From a virus, in the UHGV virus genome UHGV-0081829: a stretch of 40,614 bases of DNA; one strand, given 5' to 3'. Positions within the stretch are counted from its first letter, which is position 1. Each line of letters begins with the position of its first letter. Made by a program: the position numbers and the translations under genes. This document shows positions 34,095 through 34,178 of this stretch, in pieces. The notes beneath the pieces were generated by a model, which saw nothing but the letters and a program-made list of their open reading frames with translations, made no database searches and had not been told where the DNA came from.

Positions 34095-34110
34095 TGACGC
34101 ATCTGGCGGT

Positions 34111-34140
34111 GAAAAAAAACCGCCAGTGTGCTGCTGGCGG
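34111..34140 (-). terminator. Intrinsic terminator oriented on the minus strand downstream of ant
   Basis: Perfect 7-bp stem CCGCCAG/CTGGCGG with a 7-nt loop (34120-34140); minus strand continues with T8; no minus-strand CDS nearby. Confidence 0.4.
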
Positions 34141-34178
34141 CCTATGTCACACCCTTACTACCACATAAGGAATGCCTA

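Follow-up and report, generated by a model that had tools for sequence, protein, structure and literature searches.

A predicted sar-like cis-antisense RNA over the start of a P1 Ant-like antirepressor gene in a P22-type immI operon

Antirepressors decide prophage induction and the cross-induction of co-resident prophages, and in the paradigms of phages P22 and P1 an antisense RNA restrains antirepressor synthesis. In P22 this RNA is sar, which pairs with the region of the antirepressor mRNA where translation is initiated and so prevents its translation, as summarised in PMC2629481 and PMC13397905; PMC2629481 credits the original work to Liao et al. 1987 and Wu et al. 1987. The c4 RNA of P1 and P7 represses antirepressor synthesis and sets immI specificity (Citron & Schuster 1990, as cited in PMC8201110). 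P1 also has an antisense promoter in its kilA-repL operon, PaskilA (formerly P53as), for which the annotation of NC_005856 places the transcription start 19 nt inside kilA and the −10 and −35 further in. STnc6030, a cis-antisense RNA of the Salmonella prophage BTP1, can act in trans on a superinfecting relative (PMC7067206). A paper on epsilon34 remarked that the 'ant moron' carried by the prophage of E. coli HS must have its antirepressors controlled otherwise than in P22.

Here we describe a locus in the virus genome UHGV-0081829, of which one strand of 40,614 nt was analysed (the whole stretch is called the window). The region is a P22-type immI operon (Table 1) in which the P22-type ant is followed by a second antirepressor gene, referred to below as the target gene, and a hairpin lies in the spacer between the two. 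The initial annotation took this hairpin for a minus-strand terminator and remarked that the flanking genes are nevertheless all on the plus strand, which is indeed the case for ant, the target gene and the 73-aa ORF that follows. Judged from the sequence comparisons below, we propose, with a probability of roughly 0.75, that the hairpin terminates a sar-like cis-antisense RNA not described before, which guards the P1 Ant-like antirepressor gene.

Pfam contained no family for the 241-aa product of the target gene. Its assignment as an antirepressor is based on PHROG 1726 and on its similarity to P1 Ant2, residues 14–105 being 73% identical to Ant2 residues 29–123. The first antirepressor gene has its own divergent sar-like RNA, with a promoter-like TTGATA-17-TATACT and a TG at 33199..33171; several first antirepressors in related loci also carry sar or sar-like RNAs (in CUS-3, RF00262 scores 84.6 bits). 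The operon-closing terminator shares its stem with the terminator directly after ant in CUS-3, and this gives the stretch running from the hairpin to 35125 the appearance of an insert that separates ant from its own terminator.

Table 1. Features of the immI-type region, in window coordinates
Feature	Coordinates	Strand	Basis and details
Mnt-like ribbon-helix-helix gene	32604–32852	−	
Arc-like gene	32952–33098	+	
Divergent sar-like antisense RNA over the arc–ant spacer	33098..33164	−	RF00262, 28.7 bits (gathering threshold 43), E = 0.0055
P22-type ant, first antirepressor gene of the operon	33165..34094	+	Pfam P22_AR_N, P22_AR_C
Upstream arm CTGGCGGT	34103..34110	+	Pairs with 34119–34126 on the sense RNA; lineage-specific
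Predicted cis-antisense RNA, 73 nt	34112..34184	−	Folding and covariance model; 5' stem-loop domain plus terminator stem-loop
Predicted terminator U8 tract (plus-strand A8)	34112..34119	−	Also the left edge of the cassette
Predicted terminator hairpin	34117..34143	−	AGGCCGCCAG / loop CAGCACA / CUGGCGGUUU; terminator scan, folding, strict scan
5' domain of the predicted antisense RNA	34144..34183	−	Complementary to AAGGA (34167–34171) and ATG (34179–34181)
Target gene, 241-aa antirepressor with P1 Ant-like N-terminal domain	34179..34904	+	PHROG 1726 'anti-repressor', E = 2.5e-101
Predicted transcription start, A	34184	−	Promoter geometry; complement of the third base of codon 2
Predicted extended −10	34191..34199	−	TG 34199–34198, one free base, TACATT 34196–34191; 17-nt spacer to the −35
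Predicted −35 hexamer GTGACA	34214..34219	−	Promoter scan; plus strand TGTCAC, codons 12–14 of the target gene
73-aa ORF that travels with the cassette	34904..35125	+	PHROG 4977; beside the target gene in JEP4, E. coli A41 and EC16
Sense-strand terminator closing the operon	35136..35157	+	Stem CCCAGC-TTCG-GCTGGG

The predicted RNA resembles P22 sar (RF00262, ~68–70 nt) in being a small cis-antisense RNA in an immI-type mnt-arc-ant region, in having its promoter at the 5' end of the antirepressor gene and complementarity to the ribosome-binding site of that gene, and in consisting of two stem-loops with an intrinsic terminator in the intergenic spacer. This likeness is one of architecture only. 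Unlike that of sar, its target is P1 Ant-like and not P22_AR, its site lies between two antirepressor genes and not between arc and ant, and its predicted start is 6 nt within the coding region. We rejected membership in the sar family: RF00262 gave no match at 34112–34184, either at the gathering threshold (43 bits) or at E ≤ 10, and R1, a covariance model of the predicted RNAs (see below), links neither RNA to the other, as it did not match the sar-like RNA of the window and gave only weak matches (E = 0.09–0.3) on the sar-like regions of L094 and L095.

Like the predicted promoter, PaskilA is an antisense promoter that lies in the first codons of a kilA- or antirepressor-type gene and fires back across the 5' end of that gene. 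However, the two RNAs are unrelated in sequence, and P1 is without an equivalent short terminator cassette; the PaskilA RNA, in work attributed to Heinrich et al. in 1995, is said to be longer, at ~180 nt, and to act on transcription from P53. The c4 system is similar in that it exerts antisense-type control over an antirepressor with a homologous N-terminal domain (the 73% identity to P1 Ant2). In contrast to the predicted RNA, c4 is processed from a sense transcript and pairs with the upstream a2 and b2 near icd. An assignment to c4 was also rejected, as the window has no match to the Rfam C4 family and no icd-like gene, and its homology to P1 runs from 34227 only. STnc6030 differs in being ~786 nt long and antisense to structural genes rather than to the ribosome-binding site of an antirepressor gene.

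On the plus strand the hairpin reads CCGCCAG (34120–34126), a 7-nt loop, TGTGCTG (34127–34133), and CTGGCGG (34134–34140). The positions given in the initial annotation for this stem (34120–34140) and for two segments able to pair further upstream (GGCGGT at 34105–34110 and ACCGCC at 34119–34124) all proved correct on re-reading, as did the A8 that it placed before the stem. Its description of the minus strand as a GC hairpin followed by U8 was matched by a terminator scan, which called a minus-strand site at 34143..34117 with 10 pairs (6 of them G–C), a 7-nt loop and then a T-run. The energy of the minus-strand hairpin is −14.9 kcal/mol (z = −3.6). A loose terminator scan of 32–36 kb showed no excess of terminator-like sites (4 vs 3.4 expected). 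We also applied a strict scan, which demanded a perfect Watson–Crick stem (≥7 bp, ≥5 of them G/C), a 3–8 nt loop and ≥7 T among the 9 nt that follow. Applied to both strands of the entire 40.6-kb window, it returned two sites, the hairpin at 34120–34140 and another at 10749–10772(+), where a mean of 0.05 sites was expected from 40 dinucleotide-preserving shuffles. The plus strand 3' of the hairpin is CCTATGTCAC; as this lacks a U-tract, the hairpin is expected to terminate in the minus direction only. CCGCCAG-N7-CTGGCGG together with A8 is, by prediction, a strong minus-strand intrinsic terminator.

Homologous loci were gathered by protein search and not by the hairpin, so that circularity was avoided. 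The search gave 80 IMG/VR loci and 18 loci from species-representative genomes; among the 90 loci examined are the window itself, loci from annotated phage and E. coli records, and three more that were added by the covariance model. They come from Escherichia, Klebsiella, Serratia, Proteus, Providencia and others, with protein identities from 99% down to ~60%. Far from being absent from related islands, a possibility raised with the first description of the element, a perfect 8–10 bp minus-strand hairpin with a T-rich tail is present just upstream of the gene in 90/90 of these loci. Enteric versions retain the CCGCCAG/CTGGCGG stem and have variable loops of 5–7 nt. The stems of Proteus and Providencia read CCAATAG/CTATTGG, CCAGCAG/CTGTTGG, CCGGTAG/CTATCGG or CCGATAG/CTATCGG. 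The equivalent of the U-tract reads UUUUCUUUU or UUUUUCUUU in other lineages, and within the lineage of the window the A-run varies in length from A7 to A9.

Pairing was assessed in two alignments, A1 (MAFFT, 18 sequences) and A3 (model-based, 22 sequences), in which 99.4–99.5% of cells were paired vs 19–55% when the 3' partner was slid. Three stem pairs change on both sides (13 cells). The covariation score was reached in 0/500 shuffles, a figure that overstates independence because the homologous sequences are interrelated, and only a few events, for the most part within the Proteus/Providencia clade, probably account for the stem changes. RNAalifold independently predicts the terminator helix. 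Internal G·U pairs in four loci (L086, L089, L093 and L095) become A·C mismatches when read on the plus strand, and overall pairing is 99.5% on the minus strand vs 86.4% on the plus strand. Given the compensatory changes and the G·U pairs that are valid on the minus strand only, the helix is, as judged from these alignments, selected as RNA and as a product of the minus strand.

What would direct transcription towards this terminator? A promoter scan found one minus-strand site in the 5' end of the downstream gene, at 34219..34191, and the predicted start at A34184 lies 7 nt after the −10 hexamer. This hexamer agrees with the consensus at 4/6 positions and so would rely on the TG extension. 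Over the whole scan there was no excess of promoter sites over shuffled sequence (6 vs 6.8). As sites of this kind are no commoner than in shuffles, the case for the promoter rests on conservation and not on the match to consensus.

We compared 25 distinct versions of codons 1–25 of the homologous genes. The third codon positions that are invariant after the ATG are +6 (the start), +15 and +18 (the −10), +21 (the T of the TG), and +36 and +39 (the −35). Thus 6/6 third positions within promoter elements are invariant vs 0/18 elsewhere (Fisher p = 7e-6, which is optimistic and overstates independence, as the sequences are related). The −35 GTGACA is invariant in all 25 distinct gene starts, including at +36 and +39. 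The TG and positions T1, A2, A4 and T6 of the −10 hexamer are invariant despite differing encoded residues (KNVA, TLA, TLT or NLA); Leu is always encoded by TTA and Val always by GTA or GTC. The spacer is 17 nt in all homologues, even where the encoded residues differ, and the start position is invariant though codon 2 specifies Thr, Ser or Leu. These frozen synonymous sites are hard to explain by protein constraints, and suggest selection at the nucleotide level that fits a predicted sigma-70 extended −10 promoter. Part of the conservation of the first 14 codons could come from constraints on the sense mRNA.

Together, this promoter and terminator would define an RNA of 73 nt, with a folding energy of −25.1 kcal/mol (z = −3.0) and two stem-loops in its minimum-energy fold. 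It covers the Shine-Dalgarno sequence and ATG of the target gene in the window, and this overlap recurs in each of the 25 distinct homologous sequences. A minus-strand RNA ending near 34111 had been envisaged in the initial annotation; the end predicted here falls at ~34112–34116. The idea put forward there, that the hairpin terminates an antisense RNA arising inside the downstream gene, finds computational support in the conserved promoter facing the hairpin, in the covariation of the hairpin and in the G·U pairs that form on the minus strand only. We consider it very likely that the predicted antisense RNA exists, and likely that it also represses translation in the manner proposed below.

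The 5' stem-loop of the RNA is predicted in each of 18 representative homologue RNAs. By itself it is not unusually stable (z = −1.6), and identity between lineages is 31–66% in this region vs 81–97% in the terminator. RNAalifold on alignments A1 and A2 returned the terminator helix only, with no aligned consensus for the 5' stem-loop; indels make this region unalignable, and the 5' stem-loop is therefore without covariation support. The covariance model R1, built from 19 predicted RNAs, found one copy in the window (89.4 bits) and also matched 21 other representative loci searched. Rfam searches of the whole window at the gathering threshold, and of 32500–35300 at E ≤ 10, gave nothing real at 34112–34184; matches of SgrS and Hrs13 to the terminator part were at chance level and were rejected. 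The records of JEP4, CUS-3, phiKp_30 and KP12 and the RefSeq E. coli records have no RNA annotated here, and searches of full-text literature, in which the hairpin sequence itself was also looked for, turned up no account of this antisense RNA.

The hairpin can also compete with a second pairing on the sense RNA, as the initial annotation had recognised. The competition is real: the plus strand carries CTGGCGG at 34103–34109, and the upstream pairing (−15.5 kcal/mol) and the main hairpin (−14.8 kcal/mol) are mutually exclusive, with the minimum-energy fold of 34090–34200 taking the upstream pairing. However, the suggestion that this amounts to a general conditional structure does not stand, because the arm is confined to the lineage in which a P22-type ant lies upstream, namely the window, L006, L007 and nine IMG/VR loci (L011, two of the L019 type, L029, L032, L043, L059, L071 and L073). 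It is missing from all other left-hand contexts examined. On the minus strand the arm (34111 to 34103) would be transcribed after the U-tract, which excludes a role in anti-termination; on the plus strand both hairpins lack a U-tract. We therefore rejected an attenuator or conditional terminator, the competing arm being both lineage-specific and on the wrong side of the U-tract. We treat the arm as a lineage-specific feature of the junction, which might at most influence the way in which the sense mRNA exposes its target to the antisense RNA. The arm of L059 and L071 reads CTGGTGG and keeps its plus-strand pairing through G·U, although two sequences prove nothing.

Could the conserved hairpin nevertheless serve the sense mRNA? 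The exclusive hairpins at 34103–34126 and 34120–34140 would then act as a conditional structure, as a site of processing or as a stabilising element, and would control the downstream gene or uncouple it from ant. Their near-equal energies, the presence of the upstream one in the minimum-energy fold and the G·U pairing of the two variant arms would all suit such an element. We nonetheless regard it as quite improbable: the arm is absent in other left-hand contexts whereas the hairpin is universal, four lineages have A·C mismatches in the plus-strand stem, no U-tract follows on the plus strand, and it is not obvious what the conserved A-rich run would do in a sense RNA. The hairpin could also be a terminator that solely insulates, in keeping with its predicted action in the minus direction only. 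It would stop diffuse or long antisense transcripts from downstream and protect the upstream antirepressor, with no dedicated promoter or regulatory RNA, and JEP4 does have a minus-strand mnt gene just 3' of the cassette and pointing at it. Yet the window, E. coli A41 and EC16 have no downstream minus-strand gene, and insulation alone does not explain why six invariant third positions fall on a −35/17 nt/TG/−10/+1 array 25–35 nt upstream of the hairpin-containing transcript, or why the conserved block stops just past the −35. We therefore think insulation alone unlikely.

That the hairpin sits exactly at a mosaic junction, and that CUS-3 has annotated 'boundary sequence' features around ant, might point instead to the DNA itself, as a palindrome bound by a protein or as a 'boundary sequence' at which phage modules recombine. 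Such an element does not account for a loop that is free in sequence and length beside a stem kept paired by compensatory change, for G·U wobble, which is sensible in RNA only, or for a one-sided T-tract that is always retained; moreover, 77 E. coli genomes contain 0 copies outside the target-gene context. We consider a DNA-level role very improbable. It is scarcely credible that the hairpin terminates a small minus-strand protein gene. An ORF of 56 aa (34312..34142) is present in the window and close relatives, its stop codon abutting the hairpin, but L053, L061, L074, L084 and L086 have no ORF of at least 50 aa there and all keep the hairpin and promoter elements. Its sequence also varies freely when L044 is compared with the window, which is what one would expect of the frame opposite a genuine gene, and the ORF was rejected as not conserved.

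For the antisense RNA, we infer its production, its exact ends and its repression of translation as follows. Transcription from the minus-strand promoter within codons 5–14 would start at ~A34184 and proceed leftwards; RNA polymerase would cross the ATG and then the Shine-Dalgarno sequence of the target gene and stop in the U-tract at 34112–34116. The target mRNA most likely arises by read-through from Pant via arc and ant. As it is fully complementary to the translation-initiation region, the ~73-nt RNA would be expected to block ribosome binding. Cleavage of the duplex may possibly be triggered, and interference between convergent polymerases may contribute. In this way the second antirepressor would be given a threshold that does not depend on the first, for which a separate sar-like RNA is present.

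The block that carries these elements has sharp boundaries. Homology to other ant genes ends at ~34085, and homology with phage JEP4, Klebsiella phage phiKp_30 and E. coli genomes of different left flank begins exactly at 34112, the first A of the A-run. Many alleles diverge at ~34240, just past the −35. For example, L033 and L050 are 95–100% identical to the window over 34112–34240, 60–80% over the next 300 nt and 97–99% afterwards. DNA similarity to P1 ant begins only at 34227, within the coding region and just beyond the antisense promoter; P1 thus shares the protein domain and not the regulatory block. The antisense RNA gene, the antirepressor gene and the 73-aa ORF appear, from these comparisons, to form one cassette that recombines between phages. 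In the sampled contexts the cassette is always directly 3' of another antirepressor-type gene (P22_AR, Bro-N or ORF6N), which is itself preceded by a small Arc-like gene plus a divergent ribbon-helix-helix or helix-turn-helix repressor. Lacking a sense promoter, the cassette depends on read-through. The antirepressor family occurs in 77/5,426 complete E. coli genomes, and 253 candidate IMG/VR stretches encode a relative of the protein. Carriers include E. coli A41, O111:H- strain 110512 and E. coli HS (NC_009800), where the antisense RNA is predicted at ~327,800–327,873, opposite a disrupted copy of the gene. A dispersed repeat or REP-like element was rejected, there being one copy per locus, always attached to the target gene.

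Antisense control of an antirepressor is an already known principle, and what is new here is the predicted RNA itself. The prediction is of a second, unrelated antirepressor family with its own sar-like RNA, widespread in temperate phages of the enteric genera listed above. If confirmed, it would be a new RNA family in the control of phage immunity, and would explain how two antirepressors in one operon are regulated separately. It would also provide a signature for annotation, namely a reverse terminator before a gene combined with frozen synonymous sites in its first 14 codons. A further, rather doubtful idea, drawn by analogy, is that the RNA is a diffusible, allele-specific determinant of immunity, each immI-type antirepressor gene travelling with a private antisense RNA cassette. 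If so, the RNA made constitutively by a prophage would silence the matching antirepressor of an incoming or co-resident phage, as c4 does in P1/P7 heteroimmunity, and the divergent 5' stem-loop region would define incompatibility or specificity groups. Each mobile cassette would then be self-contained, with the terminator U-tract as its recombination edge.

The same arrangement also occurs in a second gene context. R1 matches three Providencia/Proteus loci (L093–L095, 34–43 bits) in which the encoded protein is homologous in its C-terminal half only and has a Bro-N N-terminal domain. These genes have the same reverse terminator and, in their first codons, a promoter-like TTGACT-18-TACTAT.

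The window would carry two tandem 'antisense RNA + antirepressor' units, both RNAs being predicted, when a sar-like RNA and a promoter-like site at ant are taken together. The RNA is divergent; it covers the arc–ant spacer (33098-33164, minus strand) and scores 28.7 bits against RF00262, the Rfam family of P22 sar RNA, which is below the gathering score of 43. The promoter-like site, TTGATA-17-TGnTATACT, lies on the minus strand in the start of ant (within 33098-33199). Between the mnt-like and arc-like genes there are divergent, overlapping promoter-like sites, and this pair resembles the Pant/Pmnt arrangement of P22.

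A sense terminator with the stem CCCAGC-TTCG-GCTGGG is found 3' of the 73-aa ORF (35136-35157, plus strand). In phage CUS-3 (L002, about 4106-4127) the terminator directly 3' of ant has an identical stem. Given this common stem, the segment ~34095-35125 looks like an insertion that separates ant from its own terminator.

Within the target antirepressor gene, an exchanged allele occupies 34241-34540 and codes for a portion of the P1-Ant-like N-terminal domain. Identity to two related loci (L033 and L050) is 60-80% in this segment and 95-100% in its flanks; the segment may be a specificity domain swapped through recombination. The Providencia and Proteus prophages (L093, L094 and L095) have the antisense terminator and the C-terminal domain in common with the window, and their N-terminal domain is a different one, Bro-N. 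The promoter-like site in the first codons of their gene, TTGACT-18-TACTAT, is unlike that of the window. In the E. coli HS prophage (L005, 2569-4370), an IS3 insertion interrupts the target antirepressor gene, and the predicted antisense RNA block upstream of the cut gene remains intact.

The A-run of the antisense terminator (34112-34119) varies in length among near-identical relatives (A7, A8 or A9; homologues L019 and L029), which looks like homopolymer slippage. The remaining lineages have AAA(A)GAAAA(A) in place of a pure A-run. A 56-aa ORF on the minus strand (34142-34312) has its end exactly where the hairpin lies. Five of the compared loci (L053, L061, L074, L084 and L086) do not preserve this ORF, so it is probably just the reverse frame of the true gene.

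Positions of further elements in the window and in the Providencia/Proteus loci
Feature	Location	Strand	Detail
Lambda cIII thermoregulator element	2456-2514	-	RF01804, 88.5 bits
Sole other strict intrinsic terminator of the window	10749-10772	+	
Two adjacent tRNA genes	14633-14785	+	
Promoter-like site, mnt-like/arc-like intergenic region	within 32875-32921	+	TTGACT-17-TACTAT
Promoter-like site, mnt-like/arc-like intergenic region	within 32875-32921	-	TTGATA-17-TATCCT
Predicted antisense block	1114-1182	-	L093, L094, L095
Gene with the Bro-N N-terminal domain	1177-1926	+	L093, L094, L095

The prophage as a whole is a composite: its early region is lambda-like, its immI region is of the P22 type and its tail genes are of the baseplate type.
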